Source of the DNA: a virus
Virus genome (UHGV): UHGV-0140522
DNA length: 64,000 nucleotides
Reading direction: 5' to 3' (one strand)
A program made the position numbers and the translations under genes. Position 1 is the stretch's first letter. The number at the start of each line of letters is the position of its first letter. Below, piece after piece: positions 5,240 through 60,696 of this stretch. Below the pieces are notes generated by a model, which was not told where the DNA came from, did not search any database, and was given only the letters and a program-made list of their open reading frames with translations.

Positions 5240-5271
5240 ATAGATAATAGTAAATAAGTGCTTACTTATCT
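5240..5271. promoter_or_regulatory. AT-rich palindrome family member
   Basis: TAGATAATAGTAAATAAGTGCTTACTTATCTA between the M-like stop and L-like start. Confidence 0.4.
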
Positions 5272-5282
5272 AGTGGGTTGAA

Positions 5283-5618
5283 TTATCCTTCATAAATTTG
5301 TCGGAAGGTCGCAGTGAGAACGAGATAGCCCTGGTAACGCTTCACAGTATGGCTGTCGCACACCACAACCATCTTTTTGCCACGAGGGTTCGTCCAGTAG
5401 AACGACTCAACGGCCGCGCGTGCCGTCAAAAAGTCATCGACGGCATTAATAACGTCGTAAGAGCGCGTAAATGTCAGGCTCCACTCTTCTTTAATGCGAT
5501 TGAGACCTTTGGCCTGGCGCTGTTCGTAATCGTCACCGAAATTCAGCACCGTCACGTTAGGCTTCACGGTCTTTTCCGACTCGTAGTCGGGATACCAGTT
5601 AAAAGTCAGTCTTTCCAT
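5283..5618 (-). CDS. minor tail protein, lambda M-like
   Basis: 111-aa ORF immediately after the tape measure gene; size and position match gpM. Confidence 0.6.
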   Translation of the reverse strand: MERLTFNWYPDYESEKTVKPNVTVLNFGDDYEQRQAKGLNRIKEEWSLTFTRSYDVINAVDDFLTARAAVESFYWTNPRGKKMVVVCDSHTVKRYQGYLVLTATFRQIYEG

Positions 5619-5659
5619 CTCACATCCTTGTGAGGCTGCCCCTTCCGGGGCAGCCGTGG

Positions 5660-8600
5660 TTAGTTACGTTGAGAGTTAGGGTTGAGCGAACCGCCTGGCC
5701 GCTTCTCCTGAGCGATGGTTTCAAGCGCGATCGCCTTCATGCGCTGCGCTGCCTGACTCCATGCGCCTTCGGAATTGCTGTTCTCCGAAACACTGCCGTC
5801 GCTGTTGACGTTGATCTCAATGCTGACAGGTGAGAAAACGCCGCCACCGCCGCCTTTAACACCCTCTGCGTTGAGCGTAACCGGGATGGAACGCCCATCC
5901 GGAAGCGGAACGTAGGCTTCGTTCATATCCCCTTCACCAAACAGCGCCAGCTGTGGAGAGTCAGCGATGCCACCTTTCTGGTACGCACGCAGCGGAACCA
6001 CGCCGTCTTTCCCGAAAATGCCGCCTTTGGCGAACTTCGGAATTGCCGGGATGCCGCCAGTACCATCAGATGCCGATCCGGTGAGATTGTTGAACCCGGA
6101 GTTAGAGCCGGAGGAACCCGATCCGATGTTGTCGAAGCCACCACCAGCCCAGGCAGACACCAGCCCAGAGGCAATGGTAGCGCCGAAGCTCAACCACTTA
6201 TTGCCAGAGCCGGACATGTTTGCTCCCAGCATGGCAAACGCGGCAGAAAGCGCCCCCGTGACAGAGCTAAGGTTCTGCATGGAGAAGATGGATGTCTTCA
6301 CCGCTTTGGTTTCCGCGTCTTTGGCTTCAGTACTGGTGAACAGTCCATTCACCCAGCTGCCGATCGCGTTGGTTGCAGAGCCAATCGCGCTGGTCGTCTG
6401 CTGAGTGGTCTGCCCCAGACCGGAGACCGAGCTGGAGGTCTCTTTCGTCGCCTCACCCACGCTCTTATCGCCGTTGACCGCATTCATCCGGACGCCCTGG
6501 TTGGCAACCGCTGATGCGACACCAGAAAGCAGATTGCCGCTCTGAGAGCTGCCCGCTGCCGTCGTTCCCATCCCCAGCATGTTCATGAGAGGCAGGGTGA
6601 TCTGCGTCTTCACAACCATGTTGGTGATGTCGCGGAGGATGGATTCTGCCAGGCTGGAGAAGTCCATTTTCCCCTTCATGACGAAGTCGGTCAGCGTATC
6701 CGTCATGTTGCTGAACAGGTTGCTCCAGCTGTTTTCCAGCTGATCGGCCAGATTCTCGTACTCAAGCGCCAGCTTCTGTGTCGCCGTACCCGTCTCTTTG
6801 ATGAGAGCGGTGTTGCCTGCCGCCACCAGCTGGTTAATCTGCTTGGTGTAAAGCGCCACGATTTTCGGATCAGAAGCCTGGTCACGCAGATCCATCAACG
6901 CTTTCAGGTTACGGTTGTAGGTGTCGTTGAAATCGGCCACCTTCTCTTCACGAGACGGCTTGTAACCCGCGCTGATGATGGAATCGGATTCCGGCGCCCA
7001 GGTGGAGATCATCTGCTCGACGTTGCGGCGGTTGAACATCTCGCGATAGTCGTCGCTCGCGTTAGCCAGGTCAGCCAGGCGTGACTTGGCTTTGTCGATC
7101 ATCTCCTGAGTGATGAACTCATTCGGTACGGCGTTGGCCAGTTCGGTCAGCGATTTGGTGGTATCGCGTAGAGACTGGTCAAACGACACGGTCGCTTTAG
7201 AGCTTTCACCCATCTGCCCCATAAGCTGATCGGCTTTATCCAGCGCTTTCTGGTAGCCGGCCGCCAGCTTACGCTGCGCATTTTCTTCCTTCCGTGCGGC
7301 ACGCTGAGAAGCATTGGCAGTACGCTGCCCGGCTTTTTCCGCAGCTGCGGCGTCCTGCTCACGCGCTTTGGTTAGTGCGGCGATCGCTGCTGCACGTTCC
7401 TCGTCGCTCATTTTCTCCAGAGAGCTGGCGCTGGAGGCTTTCTGCAGGTTCAGTTGGGTTTTGAGCTGCTTCGGCCCAATGATCGGCTTACCTTCGAAGT
7501 CCAGCATCGCCGTACCGTCTGGCAACGTGCGCTGATAGGTTGCGGAGTCCATCTGGTTGCGCATGTACTGCGCCAGAGCTTTCTGGGCCGCCTTGTCGCT
7601 CGTACCAAGCCCCAAAACGGTTCCCTGGTTGGACATGACACCCTTACCAGTTTTGGCAGCGTTATCACGCTCAAACTCGGCCTGAGTCAACTCCTGAGCG
7701 ACAGCTTCCAGATGCTCCTGATAGCCTCGAATACTGCCTTGTAGCTTCTGAATCTGCTCGGTATTGCCCTCTTTCTTCGCTTTTTCGAGCAGATCGTTGT
7801 AGTGGGCAATCTGCTTCTCGGTCGCGTTTTTACGGGAGGACAGTGAATCGACCAGTTTTTGCGCCGGTTCCAGGTATGACTTGTTCACCGTTTCACGGAG
7901 CGGTGCGAGAAGTTTGTTCTTCTCATCGTCAGACAGTGATTTGTCGTCATTGATTTTCTGGATCTTGTCCAGAGCCTCCTGACGTGCTTTCACAAATGTC
8001 GCAGAGAAGACCTGATTGTCGGCCCGGATTTTCTCAATCTGGGATTCTGCTGCCTCTTTAGCCAGACGTTTGGCTACAGCCCCGTCACCCAGCGCAATGG
8101 TGCCGGTAATCTTCTGGTACTCTTCCTGATTCTTCTTCAGGCGAGCCTCGATATCGGCTTTTGACTCTTTGTGAGTGACAGCGCCAACAGAGTTGGACAC
8201 ATAGCTCACGCTTTCGCCTGTTTTGAGCGCTCGCTGGTCTGCGATGATCTCTTTTTCGAGCTTTTCCGCACGCTCTGCCATCTGCGCACGTTTGGCCGCC
8301 GTCATCGCTTCCGGGATTTTGCGGATCTCGTCAACGACTTTTGACGTTTCGCTGCGGAGCATGGTCATATACGTGATAAGACCGGCTACAGCCACGGTAG
8401 CGACGGTGAACGCTGCACCAATGGGGTTTGCTGCGATGAACGCAGTTAGCCCAGCGAATGCCCCCTGTAACCCCGTGATCGCGCCACGGATAGCGAAGAT
8501 CAGCGATGGGATTGGAGCCAGACCCATACGAGCCGCACGATTAAAGCGGGTGACAGCTGTCGCGCCCAGATTGAACGGCGCCTGGATGACAGTCGACATC

Positions 8601-11769: not shown

Positions 11770-11795
11770 TAATGGTAAGTATATACTTACTTATT
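11770..11795. promoter_or_regulatory. AT-rich palindrome family member (perfect 16-bp GTAAGTATATACTTAC)
   Basis: 9 nt after the U-like stop, 55 nt before the V-like start. Confidence 0.45.
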
Positions 11796-15336: not shown

Positions 15337-15364
15337 CAAAAAGGGTGGGCGTATAGCCCACCCC
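15337..15364 (-). terminator. rho-independent terminator after the capsid gene
   Basis: Minus-strand GGGGTGGGCTATACGCCCACCC plus TTTTTG; preceded by the palindrome at 15368-15392. Confidence 0.65.
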
Positions 15365-15367
15365 TAA

Positions 15368-15392
15368 ACAGTAGATAATTACTTACCTACTA
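15368..15392. promoter_or_regulatory. AT-rich palindrome family member
   Basis: GTAGATAATTACTTACCTAC, 10 nt after the capsid stop. Confidence 0.4.
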
Positions 15393-17219: not shown

Positions 17220-18794
17220 TCACTCGGTCTCTTGAGTAGATGAGTCCCCATTCCCTCGGGGTTGATCATGCCCGCTTTCTTGGGCTGTATCTTGATCATA
17301 AGTAAGTACTGACTTATTTTCAAGGGTGTTAAGATCATTTTTTGGAGGAAATTTCAAGAGATCTTTTTGAAATTCCTTCTGCATCGCATCGGAAATGTTC
17401 GGGAAGACCTTCTCGATGAGCATTTCCATCTGATGACGACGAACAGAATCAGGCGCCTGAAGCAGCGACAGTTTCTCGGCAACGGCAAACTCGTCAGTCA
17501 GACCGCGAATGTCGAAACTTTCCGGGTATGCGATCAGAGAGTGGTCTTCATCCAGTTCGACACCCATCCATTTCGCTGCCAGTTGCATCATCTGGCGCTC
17601 TGCCCTTTCGAGACGTTCTGCTTTCGTCACCAGCAGACTGTTAACGCGCTGGAAGTCGTACATCTTCGCTGCGCCCGAAGAGTTATCGATGCCCTGTGCG
17701 TTATCCTGCTTGGTTCGCTCACCTGCCACGCCAACGGAATGGTAGATCTCGTTAATCACCGTCTTAATCGTGGTGATAATCATCTGGGCCTGTTTCGGGT
17801 CCGGAGACAGGTAGAATGGCTGATTACCGCTCTCAGAGTCGAAGGTGAAGACGCGTTTTGTCCCCATTTCGAGCACTTTGGTGTGGTTTTCATCGCCCGG
17901 CAGCAATGACTGAACCGGGATCGCCAGCTGGCTGAATGTCTGATCCTGAATAATCGCGTCAAGGTTCGACAGGTAGTTGGCCACGGCGCGATCAAGATAG
18001 GCGATATCGTCAATCAACGACGGGCTGAAATACGGAGACTCGCTTTCACCAATGCAATCCACCGGGAACACCGGCACCACGCCCAGATTATGCTGGCCGC
18101 TATCCTCCAGAACGACTTTGGCCTGACGGCGACCGCTATTTCCGGAACCTTTCTTCACTTCTTCACGGAACAGATACCACTCGTTTTGCGTCCACAGACG
18201 GTAACGCTGGTATTCCTGTCCGGTTGAAGTGAACGGATCTTCGTCGTCGCGCGCGATTTCAACAATTAGCGCCCACAACATATTGCCGTCTTCATCCCAG
18301 GCAACATCAAGCAGCTGCTGCGGCGAAATCCAGTATGCGTAGGCACGCGCATCATTTTTCTTCTCGTCTGCAACAGACTCAACATCGACGTTCATCGTGC
18401 TGTCCACGACAACCCAGATACGGCCATAAATGGATGATTGCAGATCGATAGCCGCCATAAACGCATCGATGGAGGCGTTCTGGCGCGTGGCTCGCTTCCA
18501 GAAATTGCGGATCTGCTCCGGTGCTTCATCAGTGTTGCGGTGAATGACCTCTTTGAAGAGGTATTTGTTGATGAGGTTTACCACTTCGCGCGTATGGTTG
18601 AAGCGATAAGCGCGTTCCAGGCGCTCTTTGAACTCCTGATCGCCCTCTTTGAAGTAACGGAAGATATTGTCGTTGAACCAGGCACGCCCGCCAGCGTAGG
18701 TGCTGGCGAGGAAGTCCCAATGTTCTTTTTTCTTCTCATATTCAGGGTGGCGTCGTGCCACAAGGTCTTTGATTTGCTTGTCAGTCAATTCCAT
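17220..18794 (-). CDS. portal protein
   Basis: 524-aa ORF immediately downstream of the large terminase; acidic C-terminus. Confidence 0.7.
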   Translation of the reverse strand: MELTDKQIKDLVARRHPEYEKKKEHWDFLASTYAGGRAWFNDNIFRYFKEGDQEFKERLERAYRFNHTREVVNLINKYLFKEVIHRNTDEAPEQIRNFWKRATRQNASIDAFMAAIDLQSSIYGRIWVVVDSTMNVDVESVADEKKNDARAYAYWISPQQLLDVAWDEDGNMLWALIVEIARDDEDPFTSTGQEYQRYRLWTQNEWYLFREEVKKGSGNSGRRQAKVVLEDSGQHNLGVVPVFPVDCIGESESPYFSPSLIDDIAYLDRAVANYLSNLDAIIQDQTFSQLAIPVQSLLPGDENHTKVLEMGTKRVFTFDSESGNQPFYLSPDPKQAQMIITTIKTVINEIYHSVGVAGERTKQDNAQGIDNSSGAAKMYDFQRVNSLLVTKAERLERAERQMMQLAAKWMGVELDEDHSLIAYPESFDIRGLTDEFAVAEKLSLLQAPDSVRRHQMEMLIEKVFPNISDAMQKEFQKDLLKFPPKNDLNTLENKSVLTYDQDTAQESGHDQPRGNGDSSTQETE

Positions 18795-18810: not shown

Positions 18811-18837
18811 TTTAGGTAAGTACTTACCTATCTAGAT
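18811..18837. promoter_or_regulatory. perfect 18-bp palindrome TAGGTAAGTACTTACCTA between terL stop and portal start
   Basis: Contains the terL stop codon; 25 nt upstream of the portal ATG. Confidence 0.5.
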
Positions 18838-20820: not shown

Positions 20821-20921
20821 ACCGGGCTGGGGAGTATTCAGAGCCTGCTTCCGTATATATTTAATAAGTCACTTAGTATTTATATATACGGAAGCAGGCT
20901 CTCAAACTGGCTCCCAGACCG
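20805..20921. repeat. large palindrome block, copy 1
   Basis: Perfect 20-bp arms GAGCCTGCTTCCGTATATAT / ATATATACGGAAGCAGGCTC (20841-20860 / 20882-20901) around a 21-nt spacer TTAATAAGTCACTTAGTATTT, then TCAAACTGGCTCCCAGACCG; 113 nt upstream of the terS start. Confidence 0.65.
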
Positions 20922-20923
20922 AC

Positions 20924-21190
20924 TTACATCACCAGTAATTTGGCTCTGGCACGACCTAACGTGGTCAGTCCCAGCGTGCGACGGTGGTAGCCGGAATCAC
21001 CGCGCTGGCGGCACATTCCTTTCTCCACCAGCCCCTTTTTCACCAGTGCGCGGATAGAGAACTGCATACTCTGTTTGGTCGTTTTGTACGGCAGCACTTC
21101 AAGCAGCTCGTCCAGATCGAGCAGATGCCCACGCTCATGGCCTAAATTGATGGTTTTGATGATGTCTTTTTGTTTGTCGGTCAACGTCAT
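20924..21190 (-). CDS. winged-helix transcriptional regulator (MarR/PadR-like)
   Basis: 88-aa protein with a predicted HTH (LEVLPYKTTKQSMQFSIRALVKKGLV). It lies directly upstream of the large palindrome block and terS, so it may act as a late regulator. Confidence 0.4.
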   Translation of the reverse strand: MTLTDKQKDIIKTINLGHERGHLLDLDELLEVLPYKTTKQSMQFSIRALVKKGLVEKGMCRQRGDSGYHRRTLGLTTLGRARAKLLVM

Positions 21191-22350: not shown

Positions 22351-22981
22351 ATTCCACCTTCACGCGTTCTTTGTAGTGCTTGGTAATCTGCATATCCGGG
22401 CGCAGCGCGTTCTTCAGGTCTTCGTGGGTCGTCGCCACCATTACCGTCGCACCAACCTTTCGAGCGGCACGCTGGAGGTTCGACGCCACAACCTGAGCGG
22501 TTACACGGTCGAGAACAGCGCCAAATTCGTCGGCTGCCCAGACTTTGGCGCCTGACTCGATCAGCTTGGCAATCTTGAGGCGGTATTTCTGGCCGTCAGA
22601 CATCTCGGATGGCTTGCGCACAAAGAGATAGGCGTCATTCAATCCGGCCATAGACAGCAGCCCCAGCGCTTCGCTGGTGGTTTTGCCCAGCTGGTCGATG
22701 ACGTTAACCTCATTGTCGAAGGTAAAGTCATCGATGGAGGCTACAGAAAGCCCTTCATCCTTCATCTGGCGTTGCAGTTCGCGCAGCACAACGGATTTGC
22801 CGGAACCGGATTGGCCGGTGATGTACACCACATCGCCCTGCTTCACTTCCAGCTCCAGATTGTCGTAAAGCGTCCACTCTTTTTCGTCCAGGCCAAGACC
22901 GAACGATTCGGCAATCTCCAGCGTGCGCGTGGTTTTGTTCACGCGGGTCTGAAACGATACATTGATGGTGTATTTGCTCAC
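22343..22981 (-). CDS. compact ABC-type ATPase (212 aa)
   Basis: Walker A YITGQSGSGKS, ABC signature-like MSDGQKYRLKIA, Walker B KVWAADEFGAVLD, H-loop VATTHEDL; no transmembrane or coiled-coil partner domain. Confidence 0.65.
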   Translation of the reverse strand: MSKYTINVSFQTRVNKTTRTLEIAESFGLGLDEKEWTLYDNLELEVKQGDVVYITGQSGSGKSVVLRELQRQMKDEGLSVASIDDFTFDNEVNVIDQLGKTTSEALGLLSMAGLNDAYLFVRKPSEMSDGQKYRLKIAKLIESGAKVWAADEFGAVLDRVTAQVVASNLQRAARKVGATVMVATTHEDLKNALRPDMQITKHYKERVKVEYA

Positions 22982-23679
22982 GCAGCCAGCTCCCCTGAAG
23001 AAACTTTCTCCGCATATGCCACGAAAGCGTCTACCCCGCTCTCTCCCGTGATTTCTTCCATGTGGGCAAGCAAATCCCCAACCACAATGGCAGAGCCAGC
23101 AGGGAGCGTTTTAAAGCCCAATACGTCGATGACGCGGACTTCTTCAGAGGCTACTTCGCGACTGATCTCGGTGTGCTCTTCTTTCTGGCGTTCCGTCTCT
23201 TCGCCCAGATCGAGCACCAGAGAGCCGGTTTCCATCTCTTCGGTCATGCTGCCGACAAGCACGTTCAGCTCGCGCTCTTCAAAACCGAAGACCTCGACGT
23301 CGCCCAGCACCAGGGATTCCAGTTCCTGCTGCAATTTGATGGCGTCGTAGTCAATACTGGCCAGGCGGTTGTCTTCCAGACGCTTCGCCTTCACTTCTTC
23401 TTCGCTCAGATCGTCGCGAACGATGACCGGCACACGCTCCAGACCAGCCAGAAGTGCCGCCTCGCGACGACCGTGGCCAGTAATGATGACGTCGTGCTTG
23501 TCGACCGTGATCGGCTGGTCAAAACCGCGCTTTTTGATGGCGGCCGCCAGGTCGCGGATCTGCTGTTCGTCATGTTTTTTGGCGTTCATCTCATACGGGA
23601 TGAGTTCTGCCGGGTTTCGATAGACGATTTCAAAGTTTTTGGTCATTACATACGCTCCTTGTAGTAGTCGACCAGCCAC
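22978..23679 (-). CDS. ParB/Srx-fold N-terminal domain protein with acidic C-terminal half (ParB-like 1)
   Basis: ParB box motifs (IVYRNPAELIPYEMNAKKH; ITGHGRREAA) followed by a Glu/Asp-rich region. Confidence 0.6.
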   Translation of the reverse strand: MAGRLLQGAYVMTKNFEIVYRNPAELIPYEMNAKKHDEQQIRDLAAAIKKRGFDQPITVDKHDVIITGHGRREAALLAGLERVPVIVRDDLSEEEVKAKRLEDNRLASIDYDAIKLQQELESLVLGDVEVFGFEERELNVLVGSMTEEMETGSLVLDLGEETERQKEEHTEISREVASEEVRVIDVLGFKTLPAGSAIVVGDLLAHMEEITGESGVDAFVAYAEKVSSGELAA

Positions 23680-24344
23680 ACCAGGGCTTCCCCGGCGTTC
23701 TCCATTTCGTTACCGGTATTGATTCCCTGCTCTTTGATGATGGTTTTGATGGTGTCGGCGACGCGATCTGACGCATCAAACGTCACTTTGAAGCGCATCG
23801 TCTGGTGTTCAGCGCCGACTCGCTCGGTTTTCTCGCGTTTGTCCTCATCGACCGGCTCGTCATCGCCACGGGAGAGCGCTTCCAGCGCTTCAAGATCGAT
23901 AACGGACGCTTTGGCGAGTGTTGCCGCCATTTCGTCGTCATACGGGGCGATATCGGACAACCGGTAGTCGATTTCAGACTGGATTTCTTCGATTAAGCGC
24001 TGCAAAGCGACCTGATCGTCTTCGCCGTAGCGTTCGTTATCGACGAGAGACATCTGTTTGGCCACCAGGTCGTTAATTTTGCCCACGGAGATGACGGGAA
24101 CCGTTGAAATGCCCTGCTCCATCGCGGCACGCCAGCGGTGTTCGCCACCGAGGATCTCAAAAATGCCCCCGTCCAGCTCCCGCGCCAGAATTGGCTTAAA
24201 AAAGCCCAATTTTTCGATCGAGCCTTTCAGTTTTTCGAAGTTTTGCGCCCCAACGGAGTTGGTATTCCAGGGATTCGGACGCAGGTTCGCGACTTCCACC
24301 TGCAGAATCGTAATTTTCACATCCATAATTCTGATACAATCCAT
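23646..24344 (-). CDS. ParB/Srx-fold N-terminal domain protein (ParB-like 2), first gene of operon; probable start 24326
   Basis: EVANLRPNPWNTN and EILGGEHRWRAA ParB-type motifs; acidic central region. Confidence 0.6.
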   Translation of the reverse strand: MDCIRIMDVKITILQVEVANLRPNPWNTNSVGAQNFEKLKGSIEKLGFFKPILARELDGGIFEILGGEHRWRAAMEQGISTVPVISVGKINDLVAKQMSLVDNERYGEDDQVALQRLIEEIQSEIDYRLSDIAPYDDEMAATLAKASVIDLEALEALSRGDDEPVDEDKREKTERVGAEHQTMRFKVTFDASDRVADTIKTIIKEQGINTGNEMENAGEALVWLVDYYKERM

Positions 24345-24408
24345 TGTATAAGTACTTACTTACTATAATAGCCAATTACCATACAAAAGGCACGAAGGAA
24401 AGAGGTTT
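24345..24408. promoter_or_regulatory. 64-bp divergent control region (ParB operon / helicase) containing palindrome TAAGTACTTA
   Basis: cattGTATAAGTACTTACTTACtataatagcc; TATAAT-like hexamers on both strands. Confidence 0.45.
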
Positions 24409-26307: not shown

Positions 26308-26730
26308 ATGAAACACGTTCTACTTCCACTGATTACCATCCCCGTTTTACTCCTGAGTGCATGTTCATCCCGCCCTGTGTCTGTAGCTGATGCAAAACCG
26401 GCTCCGCAGGCCAGAGTTTTCAAATACCAGACGTCTGCACCAACCACGCTGGTGGTTATGAGGGACAAAGGTATGATAGGTGCGGGCTGTGACGCATCCA
26501 TCTTCATCAATGGTGAGACGGTTGCGAAACTTGAGACCGGTGAAAAAGCGACGTTCCATCTTGATGCCGGGCAATGGATTGTTGGCGCTTCACTGGAAGG
26601 CGCCGGGCTGTGCGCACTGAACCCTGCTCGTCAGGAACGCGAGACCTTCACCAAAGCTGGCGAGACGAAAGTCTTCCGGGTGTTCACCAGCAACGCAGGT
26701 GACATCGATATCCTACCAACGACACTGTGA
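26308..26730 (+). CDS. lipoprotein (candidate exclusion/envelope protein)
   Basis: MKHVLLPLITIPVLLLSAC signal peptide with an LSAC lipobox; the track ORF begins at an upstream TTG at 26281. Confidence 0.55.
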   Translation: MKHVLLPLITIPVLLLSACSSRPVSVADAKPAPQARVFKYQTSAPTTLVVMRDKGMIGAGCDASIFINGETVAKLETGEKATFHLDAGQWIVGASLEGAGLCALNPARQERETFTKAGETKVFRVFTSNAGDIDILPTTL

Positions 26731-26734
26731 CGAT

Positions 26735-27262
26735 ATGACGAATATTACTGACATCACCTACGGGATTCCTGCAGAAGTCTGGCCGCGCGATTACACCAAC
26801 GTGGAGAAGGCGCTGATGTTCTGGCGTAAGTCTCTCATTCCTGTAAGGGTCACGATGGAAGATGGTCAGGTGTTCTGCATGTACGTTCAGGGTCTCATGT
26901 CGTCGCGCAACAAAGTCGATCTTTGCCCTGCCCCGTTCGACAAAGAAAATCGTATAAGGCTCCCACTTGAGCGAATCAGTACGATTGAATCAGGTGTGAC
27001 AGAAAGCATTGCGCACGATTTCACGGGTCGGACAACGGTACACCCAGACTATGTGGACAATCGGCCATCTCGCCGTGATTTCTTCAAAATTTGTCGCCAG
27101 GCTCATGAGATGCAGAAGTCTATAAGGGTCTACATGGCGGATGGCCGTGAAATTGAGGGTGTGTCTTCAGGCGTTGACGCTTGCCAGGTCACGCTCAACA
27201 TGGGGGACGGTCGGAAGACAGTCGTCATGTTCGATTGGGTCGAACGGATTTTACCGTTTTAA
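26735..27262 (+). CDS. hypothetical protein with internal ~80-aa duplication
   Basis: Halves align (KSLIPVRVTMEDGQVF.. vs KSIRVYMADGREI..); DNA repeat TCTATAAGGGT appears in both halves; followed by a rho-independent terminator. Confidence 0.4.
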   Translation: MTNITDITYGIPAEVWPRDYTNVEKALMFWRKSLIPVRVTMEDGQVFCMYVQGLMSSRNKVDLCPAPFDKENRIRLPLERISTIESGVTESIAHDFTGRTTVHPDYVDNRPSRRDFFKICRQAHEMQKSIRVYMADGREIEGVSSGVDACQVTLNMGDGRKTVVMFDWVERILPF

Positions 27263-27305: not shown

Positions 27306-27585
27306 GTGTCACTTCCCGTTATATTTATTTCCCCTAATCCCTATTCCACTTTAAATATATAAGGGTGAATGACCGAATAGGGAATTTATTTAGGCAACAC
27401 CTTCGAGAAAACGCGATTTATTTCTAAGACTTTGATTTTTGTTGAAGAAAATTTTTTTTCGTTCCCGTGTAAAAAACTCTTGATTTTAATTTCTGTATAT
27501 CGATAATTAGTCACATCGAAAGCGAACACGCTAACGATAAACAAATAACAAATTAAGTTATCAATATTACATAAGGATTAATATC

Positions 27586-40140: not shown

Positions 40141-40172
40141 AAAATGATAGGTAAATACTTACCTATCATTTT
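40141..40172. promoter_or_regulatory. 32-bp near-perfect palindrome of the GGTAAGTACTTACC family at the left edge of the cargo island
   Basis: AAAATGATAGGTAAATACTTACCTATCATTTT. Confidence 0.5.
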
Positions 40173-40410
40173 GTGACAAAAATCCAATGTCACGCTTGTG
40201 AGGCATATCGGCTGCGGAGTAGGCGGCGATCAGAGCAGGCCGTTCAATAGATCTGCTTTGAGAGAGGATTGGACCAAGCCCTAGATAACGAGAGAGCACG
40301 GTGCTAATACCCAAGACGACAACAGACGAGTTCATGGCAACATTTTGGAAGGTATCTTCGTATCATGATGTGGTTAAATAGACACAATTTAACCCAATGG
40401 AATTTTAGCC

Positions 40411-41013
40411 ATGCTAACCTTCTGGCACGAATATTCAGATCTCATCTCCGCATTTTTAGCGGCTCTTTTAGGTGGCTGTTTCACGATGAAAGGAGTGACA
40501 GCTCAGGTGAAACAGCAGGCAAAACAGCAGGCAACAGCGGCCAGAGAGAAGCGTATAACAACGCTATTGGGTGTCAGAGAGGAAATAGACTCACTGATTA
40601 AGTTGTATAAGGCCAGAATTGAAGAGGAAATCAAACAATACGACCGGAACTCACCGTTCGATAACATTTTCCCCATTACTCAAAACTACTTCACTTTCTA
40701 TGAAGCTAACTCGGCATCTCTACCTGAAGTTCATAGAGAAACACTATCAAAAATTGTGGCTTTTTATACAAGCGCAAGAAGCCTAATTGATTCCTATCGC
40801 GGTAATAATGCCCTTATCGAAAGGCTGGACTCCACGCAGGTTGCCAGTGACATTACTGGCAACAAAGAGCATCTTGCACACCTGAAAAGATACACAATCC
40901 TAGCCACAGAGTACGGCCGCGGATTAATGATGATTCATGAAGAGGTCATGCTGCGCTATAAACAGGTTATAGAAGCCATCGATGGTGAAATCTCGCAGCT
41001 ACAATGCAGTTAG
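40411..41013 (+). CDS. membrane-anchored hypothetical protein (200 aa)
   Basis: N-terminal transmembrane helix LISAFLAALLGGCF followed by a helical cytoplasmic domain; own promoter region; opposite strand to the phage genes. Confidence 0.5.
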   Translation: MLTFWHEYSDLISAFLAALLGGCFTMKGVTAQVKQQAKQQATAAREKRITTLLGVREEIDSLIKLYKARIEEEIKQYDRNSPFDNIFPITQNYFTFYEANSASLPEVHRETLSKIVAFYTSARSLIDSYRGNNALIERLDSTQVASDITGNKEHLAHLKRYTILATEYGRGLMMIHEEVMLRYKQVIEAIDGEISQLQCS

Positions 41014-41147
41014 TACTACAGCCTGTCCGCTTATGGCGCGTAGCGGACTAGCTCATTGGGCAGAAGGTCCGCTCTGAGCGAGGAGCGGACATTCGCCCCT
41101 CTGTCGTATGTCCTTAAAGAGCGCACACCAGATATAAAAGAATTGCG

Positions 41148-42350
41148 TTAGTGTACCTTCCTATTTTGACGGGATGTTGCATATGTCATCACTACCGCCC
41201 CCAGTAGTAACAAACCACTTAAACCAAATGCACTTCTCCATCCCAGACTGTCGAATGCCAGACCTCCAGCCGTTGAACCAAGCGCAATCGATAGCTGGAT
41301 CACCGCAACCATGAGGCCACCACCCCTCTCTGCATCTTCGGGTAACGCTCGTGCTATCCATGTCCACCATCCTGTTGGCGCAGCCGTCGCAAGTAGCCCC
41401 CACAGGCTTAATAATACGGCAACGGCCCAGATGTGGTGTCCGACCAGCAGTAACGCACCAGTAATCGCGGCCATAAGCAACGGGATCATGATTAAGGTCT
41501 TGTAAAATTTGGCGTTCAGGAATGTTGAGACGATCATTGTGCCGACAAAACCTGCTATGCCTATTGCAAGCAAAATCAGAGAAAGGTTAGAAGGTCCCAC
41601 TCTGGTGACGCTCTCCAGAAAGGGGCGCACGTAGGTAAACAAAGCAAACTGTCCCATAAAGAAGAGCCCGCAGGCAAGCATTCCCGTTGGTACGATGGCA
41701 ACGCTGAACAGACGAAGCACAGACCCCTGTGGTTTTTGTGTTTTATCGCTTTCCATCGAAGGCAGGCTGAACCATTGCCAGATGAACGCAGCTATCGCAA
41801 GAGGGACGAGACATAAAAAGGCCCCACGCCAACCGACCGTTGTCCCCAGATAACTACCAAGCGGCGCAGCCACAACGGTGGCCAGCGCGTTACCGCCGTT
41901 AAAAATTGCCAGTGCGCGGGGAACCTGGTGCTGTGGCACGAGCCGAATGGCGGTTGCAGCCGACATTGACCAGAACCCTCCGATGACGACGCCAATCAGA
42001 GCCCTCCCCAGCATATAAATCGGATAGTCAGGCGCCATGGTGATAACTAACCCTGATATGGCCATTAAGACCGTTAGCCCAAGCAGAAGATATTTACGAT
42101 TCAGGTCTCCGGCAATATGGGAGATAGTCAGACTGGTCAGCACTGCCAGTGCGCCAGAGACGGCAATTCCTTGCCCTGCCAACCCTTCGGTAACGTGCAA
42201 ATCGCGGGCAATGAGCGTAAGCAGGCTGACTGGCATAAACTCAGAAGCGATCAGCACAAACACGCAAAGCGTCATGGCAAATACGCCGCTCCAGTATGCA
42301 TGCTTTTTTTCGTATGATGGTTTTAGACTTACAGTGGACATTATTAGCAT
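41148..42350 (-). CDS. MFS efflux transporter, NepI (purine ribonucleoside efflux) family-like
   Basis: 12-transmembrane DHA1 MFS; N-terminal region closely resembles E. coli NepI as I recall it ([38 protein letters not shown]). Confidence 0.8.
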   Translation of the reverse strand: MLIMSTVSLKPSYEKKHAYWSGVFAMTLCVFVLIASEFMPVSLLTLIARDLHVTEGLAGQGIAVSGALAVLTSLTISHIAGDLNRKYLLLGLTVLMAISGLVITMAPDYPIYMLGRALIGVVIGGFWSMSAATAIRLVPQHQVPRALAIFNGGNALATVVAAPLGSYLGTTVGWRGAFLCLVPLAIAAFIWQWFSLPSMESDKTQKPQGSVLRLFSVAIVPTGMLACGLFFMGQFALFTYVRPFLESVTRVGPSNLSLILLAIGIAGFVGTMIVSTFLNAKFYKTLIMIPLLMAAITGALLLVGHHIWAVAVLLSLWGLLATAAPTGWWTWIARALPEDAERGGGLMVAVIQLSIALGSTAGGLAFDSLGWRSAFGLSGLLLLGAVVMTYATSRQNRKVH

Positions 42351-42518
42351 CCCTTAATATCGAACCAGCCAGATTCAGGCGCAGTCGGGTCAGAAGTTAT
42401 TCAGGGAATAACGACATAATAGGTGGGTGAGAATATGGGGCGATGTGACATATTCGGCGTCACACCAGGCAGGTAAAAGCCACCCGTTTATGACAGGTGG
42501 CCTGGTAAACTTTTCGGG

Positions 42519-43667
42519 TTACCTTAAGTTTGCTTTGAAAAATTGCTCAAATTTGGCAAATGGGATCTTACCCGCAACGTTGTCGTACAGATCAACATGG
42601 TTTGCCCCAGGGACAATCACTAACTCTTTCTCTTTGCTGCCGATTGCCTTAAAGGCATCTTCAGCAAAATAGCGTGAATGGGCTTTTTCGCCGGTCACGA
42701 TGAGTGTAGGGATAGTAACTTCATTGGCGTAACTCAGCAGCGGCATATTCATAAATGACAGCGGCATGGTTGCGTTCCAGGCACCGGTTGAGTTGACCGA
42801 ACGCTCATGGAAACCACGCGGCATGCGGTAATAATCAAAGAACTCTTTCAATACTGGGTTAGGATTCGCGGGCAGAGTTTCCGGCAGAATACGATCGGAA
42901 GCGGTGACGTTGCCCTTCTCATCAACATAAATGTCATGCCCGCCTGGCGCGAAAGCGCCATTTTCCGCATCCTTCCAGCGCTGCGTGTTCAGATACTGCA
43001 ATACGGCACGACGATCGGCAGTGGTATAGCGGTCTTTGCCATCGCCCACGCCATGCCCCATCGCACGGCTCATGTCATACATCACGCTGGTCGCCACCGC
43101 CTTGACACGCGTGTCCATCGCGGCGTCGTTTAAGGCCATGCCGCCCCATCCGCAGATACCGAGCAGCCCGATACGGTTGCGATCCACCTCTTTTTGCAGG
43201 CCTAAGAAATCAACCGCCGCGCTGAAATCCTCGGTGTTGATATCCGGAGATGCGACGTTGCGCGGGTAGCCGCCGCTTTCGCCCGTGTATGAAGGGTCGA
43301 AAGCCAGAGTGACAAATCCCTGTTCAGCCAGCGTCTGCGCATACAGGCCGCTGGATTGCTCTTTCACCGCCCCGAAGGGGCCGCTAACAGCAATAGCTGC
43401 CAGCTTGCGATCACCACGATCCTTCGGGATGTAGAGATCCCCGACTAAGGTGATCCCGTATCGGTTCGGAAAGGTCACCTTACGGTGATCAACTTTCGTG
43501 CTCTCAGCAAAAGTTTTATCCCATTTTTCGACCAGCGAAACGGGCGCGTTCGGATTGGCTGTATCAGCGTAACTCATATTTGTGACTCCACTTAATGATG
43601 CGCATAACAACAGGGCGGGTATCGCAGTTGTCAATTTTTGGGTGAAAGCAGTCATCAAAATCCCCTT
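42519..43667 (-). CDS. secreted alpha/beta hydrolase (dienelactone hydrolase/YcjY-like)
   Basis: Signal peptide MKGILMTAFTQKLTTAIPALLLCASLSGV; nucleophile elbow GICGWGG; track ORF 42519..43733 has an upstream extension. Confidence 0.65.
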   Translation of the reverse strand, partial: KGILMTAFTQKLTTAIPALLLCASLSGVTNMSYADTANPNAPVSLVEKWDKTFAESTKVDHRKVTFPNRYGITLVGDLYIPKDRGDRKLAAIAVSGPFGAVKEQSSGLYAQTLAEQGFVTLAFDPSYTGESGGYPRNVASPDINTEDFSAAVDFLGLQKEVDRNRIGLLGICGWGGMALNDAAMDTRVKAVATSVMYDMSRAMGHGVGDGKDRYTTADRRAVLQYLNTQRWKDAENGAFAPGGHDIYVDEKGNVTASDRILPETLPANPNPVLKEFFDYYRMPRGFHERSVNSTGAWNATMPLSFMNMPLLSYANEVTIPTLIVTGEKAHSRYFAEDAFKAIGSKEKELVIVPGANHVDLYDNVAGKIPFAKFEQFFKANLR

Positions 43668-43825
43668 CATAAAACGTGCCAGAAACAGGTTTCCTACGGA
43701 CAACGCTGCTGTGCTTTGTTGCAATGCGCACATTATAGTTAGCAGAAATAGTACTGATTAGAGGGTGAAAAATGCTAAGATTGATAACATATTGTTCTGA
43801 ATTGTGATGCGGCAGCAGGGGAAGG

Positions 43826-44713
43826 ATGATGGCGAAACGGGAAAACTATAACGATCTCTATCTGTTTATGCAGGTCGTGCGAGAAGGGAGTTTTACTGCC
43901 GCCGCGCAGAGGCTTGGCCTGGCGCAGTCAGGAATTAGTCGTGCAGTGCGCGAGCTGGAAGAACGACTGGGCGTGCAGCTTCTGGTGCGTACCACGCGCA
44001 AGTTATCGCTCACCCATGCCGGCGAGTTGCTCTATCGAACCGTCGAATCTGGATTTGACGCTTTAGATATGGGGCTTGCCACGCTGGCCCATTATCGCCA
44101 TACCCCATCGGGTACGGTCCGTATTAATGCCAGTCAGCACGCCATTGATAAAGTGCTGCTGCCGAAGCTGGCGGTGTTTAAACAACGCTACCCAGATATT
44201 CGGCTGGAGCTCATCAGCGAAAGCCGGTTTGTCGATATTATTGCTGAGCGCTTCGATGCCGGTATACGTCTGGGCTCGGAAGTAGGTAGCGGTATGGTCG
44301 CTGTGCGCATTTCGCCCGATATGGAGATGGCCATTGTCGGCACGCCCGAGCACTTTCGTCGCTACGGATTTCCGCAAACTCCCTCCGATTTAGTTATTCA
44401 TCCCTGCATCGCTTACCAGTTTGGAGACGGCAGCCTGTATGCATGGGAACTCAATCAAGACGGTAAAAAGATAACCCATCAACCTCAGGGACAATGGGCC
44501 TTTGCTGACAGCTATATGGAAGCCAAAGCCGCCCGGCTAGGCCTGGGACTGGCTTATGTTCCGGAGGAATTAGTTTCTGATGATATAGAACAGGGGGCGC
44601 TGATCAGAGTTTTGCAATGCTACAGTCAGCGCCTGGAAGGTTCATATCTCTATTATCCGCACCGCAATGTGTCACCCGCTCTAAGAGCGGTTATCGATAC
44701 ATTGAGAATTTAA
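43826..44713 (+). CDS. LysR-family transcriptional regulator
   Basis: N-terminal HTH LYLFMQVVREGSFTAAAQRLGLAQSGISRAVRELEERLG, LysR substrate-binding fold length; divergent from the hydrolase. Confidence 0.85.
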   Translation: MMAKRENYNDLYLFMQVVREGSFTAAAQRLGLAQSGISRAVRELEERLGVQLLVRTTRKLSLTHAGELLYRTVESGFDALDMGLATLAHYRHTPSGTVRINASQHAIDKVLLPKLAVFKQRYPDIRLELISESRFVDIIAERFDAGIRLGSEVGSGMVAVRISPDMEMAIVGTPEHFRRYGFPQTPSDLVIHPCIAYQFGDGSLYAWELNQDGKKITHQPQGQWAFADSYMEAKAARLGLGLAYVPEELVSDDIEQGALIRVLQCYSQRLEGSYLYYPHRNVSPALRAVIDTLRI

Positions 44714-45335
44714 GGGATAAAGATGAGGTGGTTCGCAGGCCTGGGTAATAGTTGGAAAACAACGTCCGCTCCTGGCACATTGAAGACATTACGATGGGCG
44801 ATTTTTCCCCTCACGCGTGTGCGTAAATATTAAAATTTTTTCTAGAAAAGAAAAACTTACTTCCCAGAACAGGTTTTAATAAAACCTGAACTGAACGAAC
44901 GAAGTGAGTGAAGTTCACCTCGAACGAAGTGAGAGGTTGTCTTTTCAGGTAATACTCTCCCAGGGAGGTGAGTACAAAATTCCCTCACCAACCTGGTCGT
45001 TACATAACCTGAAAAGTTATGACCTAAGTCTACTGCCAGCTTAGGCTTGGGAAGTTATGGATGACAGCACCCCAGAACCGAGATCTTCCCACACTTTATG
45101 AAGGGGAGTACTGGATTCAACCTCTCGAAACACTCCAGACTCGACAATCATAAAGTGACCTTTCTCTCTGCCCACTTTGGTTCCCCCTTCCCCAACCCCT
45201 AAACGGTGCTGGTTCTACGCTGGTAGTGAGCTTTTTTAAACCTGACGCCAGTGACGCTATCCCCCACCCATCAGGTCGAGCTGCCGGAATCAATCCGGAA
45301 AGCGGGTAGATTTTATCACTGGCGATCTGCGTTTT

Positions 45336-45360
45336 AAATGGTAAGTACTTACCGATTATT
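45336..45360. promoter_or_regulatory. AT-rich palindrome family member at right edge of cargo island
   Basis: aaatGGTAAGTACTTACCgattatt. Confidence 0.45.
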
Positions 45361-45654: not shown

Positions 45655-45785
45655 TGGAGGTGTAAAACGGTCTGGGAGTTGTTTGGAAATCACGTCTTAA
45701 AAAGCCTGCGTCTGTATATATTAATAATTAGTACTTAGTTATTTATATATACGGAAGCAGGTTCTCAAACTAACTCCCAGACTGG
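45655..45785. repeat. large palindrome block, copy 2 (degenerate)
   Basis: Arms AAGCCTGCGTCTGTATATAT and ATATATACGGAAGCAGGTTC around a 23-nt spacer containing AGTACTTAG, then TCAAACTAACTCCCAGAC; flanks also similar to copy 1. Confidence 0.6.
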
Positions 45786-45788: not shown

Positions 45789-46406
45789 TTACGCTGCCTT
45801 TTTACGTGGTCTCTTCTTCCTGACAACATTGGCAGGATCATAACCACCCAGCTTTTTCATCACCGCCAGCGGTATCTTGCTGATGGTGTGCCCAGCTTCC
45901 TGACAGTAGCCACGGAAGATAAGCAACATGCTACCACCAGGGTTGATGTTCACCTCCACCAGCCCAAGTTCAACATCCGGCTCAACGAACGCCACGCGGC
46001 CGCCAGACAAGATGACGGTTTCGTTGGCGCATTCAGCCGCACGCTCGTACCACTGCGTATCGAGGGATTGTGGTATCAACATGACTGTCGTCACTCCACG
46101 CGCCTGCTCGCGAATGGCTGCGTCTATCCAGGGGGTGATTTTGGAGTAGGGCGGGTTAAGGAACGCCACAGTGCCAGGTTCTCCCCAGCTGCACTTGAGC
46201 GCATCACGCTCAACACCGATAAAGTTCGGCAGGAGGGCATTATCTTTGTTGCAGGCGACGTCCACATCGAACTTTACGCCTATGTAACGTTGGATGGCGA
46301 CAAACAACCACTGCGGTGTGCGCCAAAGGTCGCGAAGAGAGGCATCACGCTCTCGCTTTTTGATTTTTTCGGCTGCGATCATTACTTTGTTCTGATAGGT
46401 AAACAC
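45789..46406 (-). CDS. dam: DNA N6-adenine methyltransferase (phage Dam family)
   Basis: LWRTPQWLF and FLNPPYS motifs; alternative ATG at 46382 because the listed start is a GTG inside a palindrome. Confidence 0.6.
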   Translation of the reverse strand: MFTYQNKVMIAAEKIKKRERDASLRDLWRTPQWLFVAIQRYIGVKFDVDVACNKDNALLPNFIGVERDALKCSWGEPGTVAFLNPPYSKITPWIDAAIREQARGVTTVMLIPQSLDTQWYERAAECANETVILSGGRVAFVEPDVELGLVEVNINPGGSMLLIFRGYCQEAGHTISKIPLAVMKKLGGYDPANVVRKKRPRKKAA

Positions 46407-46419
46407 TTACCTATTTTTT
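46393..46419. promoter_or_regulatory. AT-rich palindrome family member
   Basis: TGATAGGTAAACACTTACCTATTTTTT. Confidence 0.45.
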
Positions 46420-51236: not shown

Positions 51237-51390
51237 ACAAGATAAGTAAGTACATACACATTATTTTATACAAGTTTATCTGTCAGAAGTGTGTAAGGCT
51301 AGGAGGGGAGTAAAAAAAATGGTGGCTCTTAGGCCACCATTGCAATGAGCAATTAAGAACTTGGACAATAAAACACGCCAAGGCAATATA

Positions 51391-51420
51391 TAATGATAAG
51401 TAGATACTTACAATTATTTT
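51391..51420. promoter_or_regulatory. degenerate AT-rich palindrome family member
   Basis: taatgATAAGTAGATACTTACaattatttt. Confidence 0.3.
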
Positions 51421-55939: not shown

Positions 55940-55970
55940 CAATAAAAAAGGCCACTAAATATAGTGGCCT
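55940..55970 (-). terminator. rho-independent terminator 10 nt upstream of the nrdA start
   Basis: Minus-strand GGCCACTATATTTAGTGGCC plus TTTTTTATT. Confidence 0.6.
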
Positions 55971-55976
55971 CATGTT

Positions 55977-56006
55977 AATAGATAAGCACTTACCTATCAA
56001 TTACCG
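55977..56006. promoter_or_regulatory. AT-rich palindrome family member; possible TTGATA-N17-TAACAT promoter on the minus strand
   Basis: taatAGATAAGCACTTACCTATCaattacc. Confidence 0.4.
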
Positions 56007-59242: not shown

Positions 59243-59471
59243 ACAATGCCTCTAACTTTTTGATTCAAATGCTGGCCTTTTCGCAGTTGAAACTCCGTGT
59301 GGGCTGGGAAAGATCTGCGTTTCAGTACGCCTTGTTTGCTCAGTCTTCCCAGATAAAACGCCACAGGGTTTCCGTCAGGTGGGTAGGGCTTGTGGAACAT
59401 CACCGTCTGGCCTCGTTCAAGTCTTTTCATCGTGGAGATGAAGTCCCGAAAGCTCCCAGAATGGCTCGTAC

Positions 59472-60557
59472 TCACACTGCCTCCGCACTCTCCGCTTCGG
59501 TCAGGATCTCCTGACACAGCATGTCCAGCTTGCTCAGGTCGAAGCCGCCGTCAGTGTCGTGAACGATCTTGCAGTACGCCGCGACGGACTCGCCCAGGCT
59601 GTCTATTTTGCTGGTCTCCGCAGTACTGGCAGTGCCTTCCATCATCGATGCCTTGCGGATGAAGTTGCAGACGACACCCTTAGCGCCCATTGTTTTCAGG
59701 ACGTTCTGGAGTTTGATGCCTTCTTCATCGCTCTCAACAACGGCACGAAAGCGCACGTAGTTACCGCGAATTTGGTCGTCTTCCACATCGTCCTCAAGGT
59801 TGACGAACTTGGGTGCGGAGGTTTCGTGGTGGGTGAATGTGCCGTCAGGGTTGACGATCATGAAGCCAGCCAGAGAGCCAACATCGCCCCAATTCTGGTG
59901 CGTCAGCGCCCCGATGCTAACCACTCCAGGCAGCACTTCTTTGTGGTTGTGGTAGTGTCCGGACAGCAACAAACGGAAGCCGATATCTTTCAGTTCCTGT
60001 GCGTCGATGCCGACATCAGGCATGGTGGGGATCGCTTTGTTGATCGAGGTATGCACAACGACATCGTGGTTGTCGCCATCCAGCCCGGAACGCAGTGTTT
60101 TGAGGTCGCTGATAAGCTCTGCGTGGTTATTGCGCCAGCTAATCAGGTGGACGGTAACGTCGCCCATTTTGATGGAGTGAGAGCGTTTGCCGCAGACGAT
60201 TTCCACACCGATTGAGCGCAGAGAGGCCGCTGCATTGGCGCTGTATACGGAATCGTTGGTTTCGAGGTCGTGGTTGCCGGCCAGCATGACCACTTCGAGG
60301 CCCAACTCTTTGATGATCCACTCGTAAGTTTCGGTCACGAAATGCAGGACGGAAGGCGATATAGCACCACGAACATGGAAAGTATCACCAGCCACCAGCA
60401 TGTGCTTGCAGCCCGCAGCTTTCATGGCTTTGGCAGCTTCTTTCGTGGCGTCCAGTTGGATCTCCAGTCGAGAGTTCAGCCCGTCAGCGTTTGTTGTCGC
60501 AAAAGCATCCCAACGATGATAATGGGGATCTGATATCACCCCGTATGGCAATGTCAT
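59472..60557 (-). CDS. sbcD: SbcD/Mre11-like nuclease (T4 gp47-like)
   Basis: Calcineurin-like phosphoesterase motifs (SDPHYH, AGDTFH, GNHD, SGHYH). Confidence 0.75.
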   Translation of the reverse strand: MTLPYGVISDPHYHRWDAFATTNADGLNSRLEIQLDATKEAAKAMKAAGCKHMLVAGDTFHVRGAISPSVLHFVTETYEWIIKELGLEVVMLAGNHDLETNDSVYSANAAASLRSIGVEIVCGKRSHSIKMGDVTVHLISWRNNHAELISDLKTLRSGLDGDNHDVVVHTSINKAIPTMPDVGIDAQELKDIGFRLLLSGHYHNHKEVLPGVVSIGALTHQNWGDVGSLAGFMIVNPDGTFTHHETSAPKFVNLEDDVEDDQIRGNYVRFRAVVESDEEGIKLQNVLKTMGAKGVVCNFIRKASMMEGTASTAETSKIDSLGESVAAYCKIVHDTDGGFDLSKLDMLCQEILTEAESAEAV

Positions 60558-60669
60558 GTGTCTTTTCCTTTGTGGTTATTTTGATACAGATGTTAAGCGT
60601 GTTTGAGAGGCGAACAACCCAGACAACACGGCACAGAAGAAAATCTACAGGCACATGATTATGACAAGA

Positions 60670-60696
60670 TATATAAGTAAATACCTACTTATTTTT
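60670..60696. promoter_or_regulatory. degenerate AT-rich palindrome family member
   Basis: atatAAGTAAATACCTACTTATTTTTA upstream of the sbcD start. Confidence 0.3.

Follow-up and report, generated by a model that had tools for sequence, protein, structure and literature searches.

A conserved family of 18-bp palindromes at the gene boundaries of an SSU5-type phage-plasmid: probable protein-binding sites and candidate repressor operators

What are the short, AT-rich palindromes that punctuate the gene boundaries of the virus genome UHGV-0140522? The 64-kb stretch analyzed here, referred to below as the window, is part of a phage-plasmid of the SSU5/pHCM2 type (52% GC). It is 99.9% identical over 36-56 kb to the Citrobacter plasmid pRHBSTW-00524_2, a cargo segment excepted; with Salmonella phage SSU5 it shares about 95% identity, and with Klebsiella and Escherichia coli relatives about 82%. 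Nearly all of its genes are on the minus strand, and they include those for tail, head, portal and terminase proteins, a ParB-like/ABC operon, accessory genes, methyltransferases, nucleotide metabolism and SbcCD-like proteins. Elements of the SSU5/pHCM2/pMT1 type are frequently found in Klebsiella, E. coli, Salmonella Typhi, Yersinia pestis, Enterobacter and Acinetobacter, some of them with resistance genes, and their choice between plasmid life and lytic growth is essentially uncharacterized. The palindromes described below are probably protein-binding DNA sites that control transcription; more tentatively, and as a prediction about binding, they may be the dispersed operators of an XRE-type prophage repressor that belongs to this family of elements, working by the logic of the C1 repressor of phage P1.

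The unit is an 18-bp palindrome, TARGTAAGTACTTACYTA, with symmetric AT-rich flanks. All 14 positions at which the initial annotation had placed a copy do carry one, and a fifteenth, missing from its list, lies inside the portal gene (17299-17316). Searched for as the 14-mer GGTAAGTACTTACC with up to three mismatches, the family gives 13 matches in the window, against a mean of 1.01 and a maximum of 3 in dinucleotide shuffles; an iterated weight matrix finds 15 strong sites, and none of the shuffles reaches 15 bits. The family is therefore well above the roughly one copy expected by chance. Overall AT composition, which had been put forward as a possible trivial explanation, does not account for the family: when only the non-coding DNA of the window (47% GC) is shuffled, 0.34 matches are expected and 9 are observed. 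A match at 10747 is probably due to chance, and weak matches at 20877 and 45732 belong to another repeat of about 120 bp, not to the palindrome family.

The copies are placed in a regular way with respect to genes (Table 1). Read in gene (minus-strand) orientation, the upstream stop codon is 0-15 nt away or overlaps the site in 8 of 12 co-directional cases, much as first described, and the next start codon follows 13-131 nt downstream. In SSU5 no site falls between convergent genes, and divergent regions, where a promoter must exist, do hold sites. The initial annotation had also pointed to intrinsic terminators directly after two copies (15372-15389 and 55979-55996); both are there, and the copy at 5251-5268 makes a third such pair. 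In all three (15338-15389, 55948-55996 and 5207-5268) the terminator stem starts about 8 nt after the palindrome, a spacing also seen in SSU5, in an Acinetobacter relative and at the nrdA site of Klebsiella phage pJN2-26 (about 12 nt at the pJN2-26 capsid site). This coupling of palindrome and terminator is explained by none of the models considered here.

Absence of the motif from relatives, which the initial annotation had named as a possible refutation, is not what was seen: relatives carry it across genera. In IMG/VR, 31 stretches match the perfect 18-mer exactly, and many of these belong to contigs as long as an SSU5-like element (about 100-113 kb). The complete SSU5 genome has 26 sites and pJN2-26 has 25, against 0.15 in shuffles, and for 23 of the 26 in SSU5 there is a counterpart at the orthologous pJN2-26 position, in genomes that are about 80% identical. 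Per-position identity between the two is 0.75-1.0 from -9 to +9 and about 0.5 in the flanks, and even site-specific departures from the consensus are kept, for example ATTGTAAGT, TAAGTCAGT and CTGATCTA. The copy within the portal gene, also conserved in SSU5 and pJN2-26, is instructive: it reads TAAGTCAGT, its lone change from TAAGTAAGT (A-to-C) avoids a stop codon in the portal frame, and its sequence is thus as near to the consensus as that coding frame permits.

More distant relatives, located through the terminase, have changed the palindrome and kept its places. In a plasmid of Acinetobacter baumannii, whose terminase is 60% identical, there are about 30 copies of TCAGTCA(G/C)TACTGACTGA, a changed palindrome, TCAGTCAGTACTGACTGA, and in one of Aeromonas caviae, whose terminase is 54% identical, about 25 copies of TCAGTAAATRYTTACTGA. 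In these lineages the sites are at similar junctions: between terminase and portal genes (occupied in both), ahead of or behind the capsid gene, next to intrinsic terminators, upstream of nrdA, and in the divergent region that separates the helicase and ParB-like operons, which has a site in all three lineages. The layout of the capsid site at 15372-15389 recurs in SSU5, pJN2-26 and Acinetobacter. Such concerted change of sequence at retained places argues for a specific trans-acting partner that the element itself encodes. A site for a host factor is unlikely, as the motif tracks the lineage of the element and is confined to SSU5-like contigs in IMG/VR. Mobile palindromes, similar to repetitive extragenic palindromic (REP) elements or miniature inverted-repeat transposable elements, were rejected because the positions do not differ: 23 of 26 are orthologous, and the same junctions are used in other genera.

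Do the palindromes act as DNA or as RNA? One possibility, already raised in the initial annotation, is that they form hairpins in polycistronic mRNA, serving as processing sites, stabilizers, weak terminators or translational operators. Their intercistronic positions, often just past a stop codon and in Aeromonas 0-5 nt ahead of the ribosome-binding site, would suit such a role, and the best copies fold at -7 to -13 kcal/mol. The arms, however, show no covariation: among 58 distinct enterobacterial copies they form 437 Watson-Crick pairs, compared with 434 +/- 7 when right arms are swapped among sites, and at +/-7, the only truly polymorphic position, pairing is at chance level, with about 45% of sites mismatched there. 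Predicted RNA stability of the copies ranges from -13 to -0.5 kcal/mol, and conserved copies fold at merely -0.5 to -4 kcal/mol, those at 51243-51260, 51397-51414 and 24345-24362 being effectively unstructured. The stems are AT-rich and not regularly followed by U-tracts, the copies in divergent regions lie upstream of any transcript, and a scan of the window at Rfam gathering thresholds gave no matches. As the arms vary independently and several conserved copies cannot fold, the palindromes are better regarded as DNA half-sites for a dimer than as RNA hairpins, and an RNA role seems very improbable.

The enterobacterial lineage does encode a FljA-like protein, and FljA is reported to bind mRNA, which could be counted in favor of an RNA role; the gene is missing from the Acinetobacter and Aeromonas elements. 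The same absence led to rejection of the FljA-like protein (26699-27262, PF03614) as a binder of the palindromes, as these elements have the same system. The protein is of interest in its own right: encoded on the plus strand in the helicase operon, it is a full-length homologue (E = 1e-96) of FljA, the repressor of phase-1 flagellin, it is confined to enterobacterial members, and it could allow the element to interfere with host flagellin expression.

If the palindromes are DNA sites, their relation to promoters becomes the next question. With a stringent sigma70 definition, the same as that of the scan tool, applied to five genomes, promoter-like matches accompany 40 of the 128 sites when the gene strand is read and 13 of them when the opposite strand is read, with 2.2% expected by chance; within the window the figures are 7 of 15 and 0. 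The palindromes overlap these predicted promoters in different ways, their centers falling between about -49 and +1.5 when counted from the predicted start. TTGAAA-17-TATGAT at 17295-17323, upstream of the scaffold and capsid genes, is the best sigma70 match of the window; TTGATA-17-TAACAT (55972-56000) precedes nrdA; and in TTGTAA-17-TATATT (51385-51413) the left arm of the palindrome is itself the -35 element. Elsewhere, extended -10 elements that are kept in SSU5 and pJN2-26 lie 5-7 nt downstream of the palindrome (TGTAAGAAT, TGTCATAAT). Some copies, among them the terminase/portal copy and several in Aeromonas, leave only 7-18 nt to the start codon, ribosome-binding site included, and so cannot be the promoter of the next gene.

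Such a variable register, combined with overlap of near-consensus promoters, is expected of repressor operators and not of an activator with fixed geometry: registers between -49 and +1.5 are usual for the former and unusual for the latter. Several of the overlapped promoters are near consensus (for example TTGAAA-17-TATGAT and TTGATA-17-TAACAT), and a stable prophage would have to repress them. A fixed-geometry promoter was also considered as the basis of the motif and rejected: the mean -10 score is positive at +8 in the enterobacterial lineage only, equally on both strands, which does not support a single fixed register. The initial annotation had proposed binding sites for a dimeric late regulator. 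The class of element stands, given the independent arms, the conserved copies that do not fold, the shared positions across genera and the coincidence with promoters; the restriction to late genes does not, as nrdAB, thyA, dam, the helicase operon and replication genes are also preceded by sites.

The most likely binder is an XRE-type repressor of 126-154 aa whose gene adjoins those for an integrase and a CobT-like protein. It is homologous and syntenic in the SSU5-like phage-plasmid Cyrano, in Klebsiella pJN2-26, in a Citrobacter plasmid of the window's type, and in the Acinetobacter and Aeromonas elements, and it is found in about 900 plasmids across the genera that carry SSU5-like elements; a Citrobacter homologue has the accession WP_000224608. 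Several features connect it with the palindromes. In Cyrano, pJN2-26, the Citrobacter plasmid and Acinetobacter, a palindrome is present at the repressor's own promoter, 30-47 nt ahead of its ATG and right after a TAATAT hexamer, hence over the start region. In the Citrobacter plasmid this copy is joined by another, 37 bp upstream, and the densest site cluster in the Acinetobacter genome (four in 850 bp) lies in the divergent promoter region of the repressor gene. Like the palindrome, the first residues of the predicted recognition helix vary from lineage to lineage (NANN/NPNI, RPNV, QTSM).

Expression data from a Cyrano lysogen of E. coli LF82 bear on the same idea. There CYRAN_45, the Cyrano homologue and a helix-turn-helix "putative repressor", is expressed, and ciprofloxacin induces Cyrano 39-fold (PMC9928086). 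In the 42 kb around the repressor, the lysogen-expressed genes CYRAN_26/27, 29/30, 40, 43 and 50/51 have no upstream palindrome, the repressor itself excepted; elsewhere in the genome, the roughly 1 kb ahead of CYRAN_99, 102 and 109 is likewise free of copies. The proposed mechanism would then be as follows. A dimeric regulator encoded by the phage-plasmid, most likely the XRE-type repressor, would bind two 9-bp half-sites in or beside the sigma70-type promoters that head most lytic units (packaging, head, tail, nucleotide metabolism, methylases, helicase operon). The scattered operators would silence about 100 kb of co-directional lytic genes during plasmid life, and copies at junctions with no recognizable promoter may block read-through transcription.

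Several observations weigh against this repressor model. About two thirds of the sites have no stringent sigma70 match; most of these have an A-rich tract at the -35 position and TAnnnT at +8 to +13, which resembles an activator-dependent promoter, and the core AAGTACTT is close to the P1 Lpa box AAGTnACTT. In the Cyrano lysogen, CYRAN_81, 162 nt after the copy at 78486, and CYRAN_117, in the helicase operon headed by the copy at 105116, are both expressed 12-fold over background. The four conserved sites about 8 nt upstream of an intrinsic terminator are not explained by operators. The repressor gene lies outside the window, and phage SSU5 lacks it and has kept all 26 sites, which may be accounted for by its 95% identity, leaving no time for decay. 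Finally, a winged-helix protein that every lineage has conserved is no less plausible as the binder.

This 88-aa protein, encoded immediately upstream of the small terminase gene, had been singled out by the initial annotation as the candidate regulator. Its winged-helix fold is confirmed: the alignment-based AlphaFold model has a predicted local distance difference test (pLDDT) score of 86, against a poor 51 from the single sequence, and is a MarR/PadR-like winged helix with a C-terminal helix and a template modeling (TM) score of about 0.75 to MarR-family structures. Its tie to the sites, on the other hand, is no stronger than that of the XRE-type repressor. It would be the best candidate for the main rival explanation, in which the palindromes are activator boxes in the style of P1 late promoters: a phage activator bound at the palindrome, upstream of a -10 element with no -35, would turn on some 26 lytic units after induction. 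The ten late promoters annotated in the P1 GenBank record, from which the consensus was derived, have AAGT(G/T)ACTT followed after 4 nt by TAnnnT, and many copies here have AAGTACTT followed after 3 nt by TATCAT, with a -35 region that is A-rich and not TTGACA-like. Many of the Acinetobacter and Aeromonas copies have TATACT or TATAAT in place of their downstream end, at a fixed offset and in gene direction. The place of the winged-helix gene, just upstream of the small terminase gene, is the usual one for a late activator, its product has a DNA-binding fold, and it is present in all three lineages.

Despite these parallels an activator appears less likely than a repressor. No homologue of C1 or Lpa was found by tblastn in five genomes (E > 2 for Lpa in all five), and the sites extend well beyond the late (morphogenesis and lysis) genes to which Lpa-type boxes are restricted. 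The register to predicted promoters varies, the sites only 7-18 nt from a start codon could not serve the next gene as a promoter, several overlapped promoters have a good -35 and -10 at 17-bp spacing and would need no activator, and at the repressor's own promoter a copy covers the start region. In the winged-helix protein, moreover, helix 3 is almost invariant across lineages whose palindromes differ. It is also conceivable that the repressor and the winged-helix protein could share the same sites, by analogy with lambda CI and Cro, which share theirs.

A second repeat family, of about 110-130 bp, should be mentioned beside these late-promoter parallels. It occurs in the window at 20837-20905 and about 45670-45782, and in SSU5 at 33.48 kb, 78.33 kb and about 103.27 kb. 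The core, CCTGCTTCCGTATATAT...ATATATACGGAAGCAGG, forms a long inverted repeat whose arms, of 24 nt each, show 96% complementarity. The center is AAGTGACTT in the 20.8-kb copy and AAGTTACTT in the SSU5 33.5-kb copy, which are exact 9-mers of P1 late promoters (LP23; LPdar, LPs and LPhot), and the 8-bp form AAGTACT in the 45.7-kb copy. The 20.8-kb copy is upstream of the small terminase gene, with AATATA following after 4 nt, an arrangement that the activator model can claim in its favor; the 45.7-kb copy follows the dam-like methyltransferase gene. Possible roles of this repeat are those of a packaging or late promoter, of a lytic origin and of a pac-related element.

Another possibility is that the palindromes are loading or binding sites of the two ParB_N-domain proteins, in the style of RK2 KorB or Bacillus Noc, with a clamp dependent on cytidine triphosphate (CTP) silencing or organizing the replicon. 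Two ParB_N proteins with a GERR-like motif are encoded in all lineages, and their operon begins at a palindrome that is conserved in all three. ParB-family proteins typically bind palindromes of 13-16 bp, and KorB has 12 dispersed sites. This explanation is nevertheless improbable: no clear helix-turn-helix was seen in the ParB_N proteins, whose alignment with Spo0J is weak beyond the N-terminal domain, and their genes are in a packaging-proximal operon. Neither the bias in gene strand and promoters nor the near-exclusion of sites from coding DNA would be expected of clamp-loading sites; parS and Noc sites are often within genes.

Could the palindromes instead be recombination boundaries, short conserved sequences at which modules or cassettes are exchanged? 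The initial annotation had suggested that module junctions might coincide with the sites and that two copies bracket a cargo island. Homology breakpoints scored against SSU5, pJN2-26 and the Citrobacter plasmid delimit that island at 40232-44811, and it resembles a cargo hotspot, with IS66, DUF2254 and BetT genes in its place in the 99.9%-identical Citrobacter plasmid and an RNase H gene in SSU5. That this variable segment lies between two copies, and that one indel relative to SSU5 starts 8 nt from the copy at 60670-60687, are the points in favor. The bracketing is loose, however, with junctions 67 bp and 527 bp from the nearest copies; of some 14 breakpoints only 2-3, at 40231 and 60695, are within 100 bp of a site, most being 0.5-2.7 kb from any; and sites are found, too, between core genes such as terminase and portal, which never undergo exchange. 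A role in exchange is thus extremely improbable.

Table 1. Palindrome copies and other features of the window (positions in the window; strand given where noted).
Feature	Positions	Strand	Context
TAAGTAAGCACTTATTTA (minus-strand reading)	5251-5268		14 nt past minor tail gene stop; terminator at about 5238-5207; next ATG 58 nt downstream
TAAGTAAGTATATACTTA	11776-11793		5 nt past stop codon; 51 nt ahead of immunoglobulin (Ig)-domain tail gene start
TAGGTAAGTAATTATCTA	15372-15389		9 nt past major capsid stop; terminator directly after, about 15364-15338
TAAGTCAGTACTTACTTA	17299-17316		Inside portal gene 3' end; fills spacer of TTGAAA-17-TATGAT
TAGGTAAGTACTTACCTA, perfect	18813-18830		Large terminase/portal junction; first three bases are the TerL stop TAG; 18 nt before portal ATG
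88-aa winged-helix protein, MarR/PadR-like	20924-21190	minus	Conserved in all three lineages
Two ParB_N-domain proteins (span 22978-24344)	23646-24344, 22978-23679	minus	Candidate binders in the ParB/KorB-like alternative
Palindrome copy	24345-24362		Divergent region, ParB-like operon (minus) and helicase operon (plus); TATAAT after it in helicase direction
ATTGTAAGTGCTTACCTA	30668-30685		Just past terminator; left arm gives TTGTAA, TAATAT 17 bp downstream
TAGGTAAATACTTACCTA	36789-36806		Abuts DUF4942 methyltransferase stop; extended -10 TGTAAGAAT 5 nt downstream
Longest copy, 32-bp perfect palindrome	40141-40172		Core 40148-40165; 67 bp from cargo island left junction
Open reading frame of unknown function, partial	40411-41013		N-terminal end inside island boundary
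MFS transporter	41148-42350		Cargo island
Alpha/beta hydrolase	42519-43733		Cargo island
LysR regulator	43826-44713		Cargo island
TCGGTAAGTACTTACCAT	45338-45355		527 bp from cargo island right junction; TG-extended promoter-like site directly downstream, 45338-45310
TAGGTAAGTGTTTACCTA	46396-46413		13 nt ahead of adenine methyltransferase start
TGTGTATGTACTTACTTA, degenerate	51243-51260		Between terminator and thymidylate synthase start; cannot fold (-0.5 kcal/mol)
ATTGTAAGTATCTACTTA	51397-51414		Forms TTGTAA-17-TATATT; reads into short unit ending at terminator 51341-51318
TAGGTAAGTGCTTATCTA	55979-55996		Spacer of TTGATA-17-TAACAT; then terminator 55971-55948, then nrdA start
TAGGTATTTACTTATATA	60670-60687		112 nt ahead of metallophosphoesterase start; indel relative to SSU5 begins 8 nt away

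Other features of the window and its relatives may also deserve attention. On the minus strand at 51318-51413, in the gap that separates the pyrophosphohydrolase gene from that for thymidylate synthase, a strong terminator, AATGGTGGCCTAAGAGCCACCATTTTTTTT, lies about 45 nt beyond the promoter-like TTGTAA-17-TATATT; the unit is conserved in SSU5 and pJN2-26, has no Rfam match, and may encode a small RNA of about 70 nt. Iteron-like repeats resembling CTCACTACAGTGGATA adjoin the RepA gene at about 63.85-63.95 kb (about 59-61 kb in SSU5, with about six copies), and a separate over-represented word, AAACAAATTGT, occurs 9-11 times in SSU5. Cyrano encodes a LexA-like S24 peptidase (27311-27700 of stretch L048), and Hfq homologues are present in the Acinetobacter (L039, 818-1357) and Aeromonas (L043, 3059-3376) elements; these may have a bearing on SOS induction and on control at the RNA level.

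If the palindromes are indeed regulatory sites, the family gives a probable complete cis-regulatory map of the lytic programme of these elements, at about 26 sites per genome, together with two concrete candidate regulators. The series TAAGTAAGT, TCAGTAAAT, TCAGTCAGT would also offer a natural experiment in specificity for the study of protein-DNA recognition, and the palindromes mark, in addition, an insulated spot at which cargo genes accumulate. A more far-reaching idea, and a doubtful one, is that a single palindrome family serves as conditional punctuation for a 100-kb prophage with almost all of its genes in one direction: a single protein-DNA complex would close promoters, stop read-through at junctions and shield the cargo hotspot, perhaps with ParB_N clamps taking part in a KorB- or Noc-like way, sites and binder having co-evolved across Enterobacterales, Acinetobacter and Aeromonas.

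How do these sites compare with known systems? The searchable literature (subscription papers on SSU5-like genomes being outside its scope) yielded no paper with the motif or its description; within that literature the palindrome family, its spread over three bacterial orders and its link to a repressor and winged-helix pair are new, and the kind of element, a genome-wide phage regulatory motif, is already known. REP elements and the promoter-stem-loop cassettes (PeSLs) of T4 are likewise short palindromic units that punctuate intergenic regions; the positions here, in contrast, are orthologous across genera and not mobile, there is no selection for hairpins, and the sites are not at exchange junctions. 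RK2 KorB also has a palindromic operator spread over a whole replicon at variable distance from promoters, and ParB-family genes are present here; the difference is that specific DNA binding by the ParB_N proteins of these elements is only putative.

The two closest parallels are both from P1. With the Lpa boxes, one of which is used bidirectionally, the palindromes share identical half-sites (AAGT/ACTT), a number of about a dozen or more copies and, in about half of the enterobacterial copies, TAnnnT close by with a poor -35; this hexamer is found at +8 to +13 on either side of the palindrome alike. They differ in that the P1 box has 9 bp, including a central base, and is separated from the -10 by 4 nt, whereas here an 8-bp core lies within an 18-bp palindrome, 3 nt from the hexamer; they are also not confined to late genes, and the searches described above found no Lpa homologue. 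The C1 system offers a likeness of another kind: P1 is also an enterobacterial phage-plasmid, in which one repressor serves many scattered operators that, according to the P1 annotation, overlap the -35, -10 or start of lytic sigma70 promoters in variable register and are found at the repressor's own promoter too. The P1 operators are asymmetric 17-mers and the sites here are 18-bp palindromes, about 26 in number and many at tight gene junctions, and in place of a C1 homologue the candidate is a small XRE-type helix-turn-helix protein. Assuming that this repressor does bind the palindromes, the resemblance to C1 would lie in the way the system works and not in membership of the same family.

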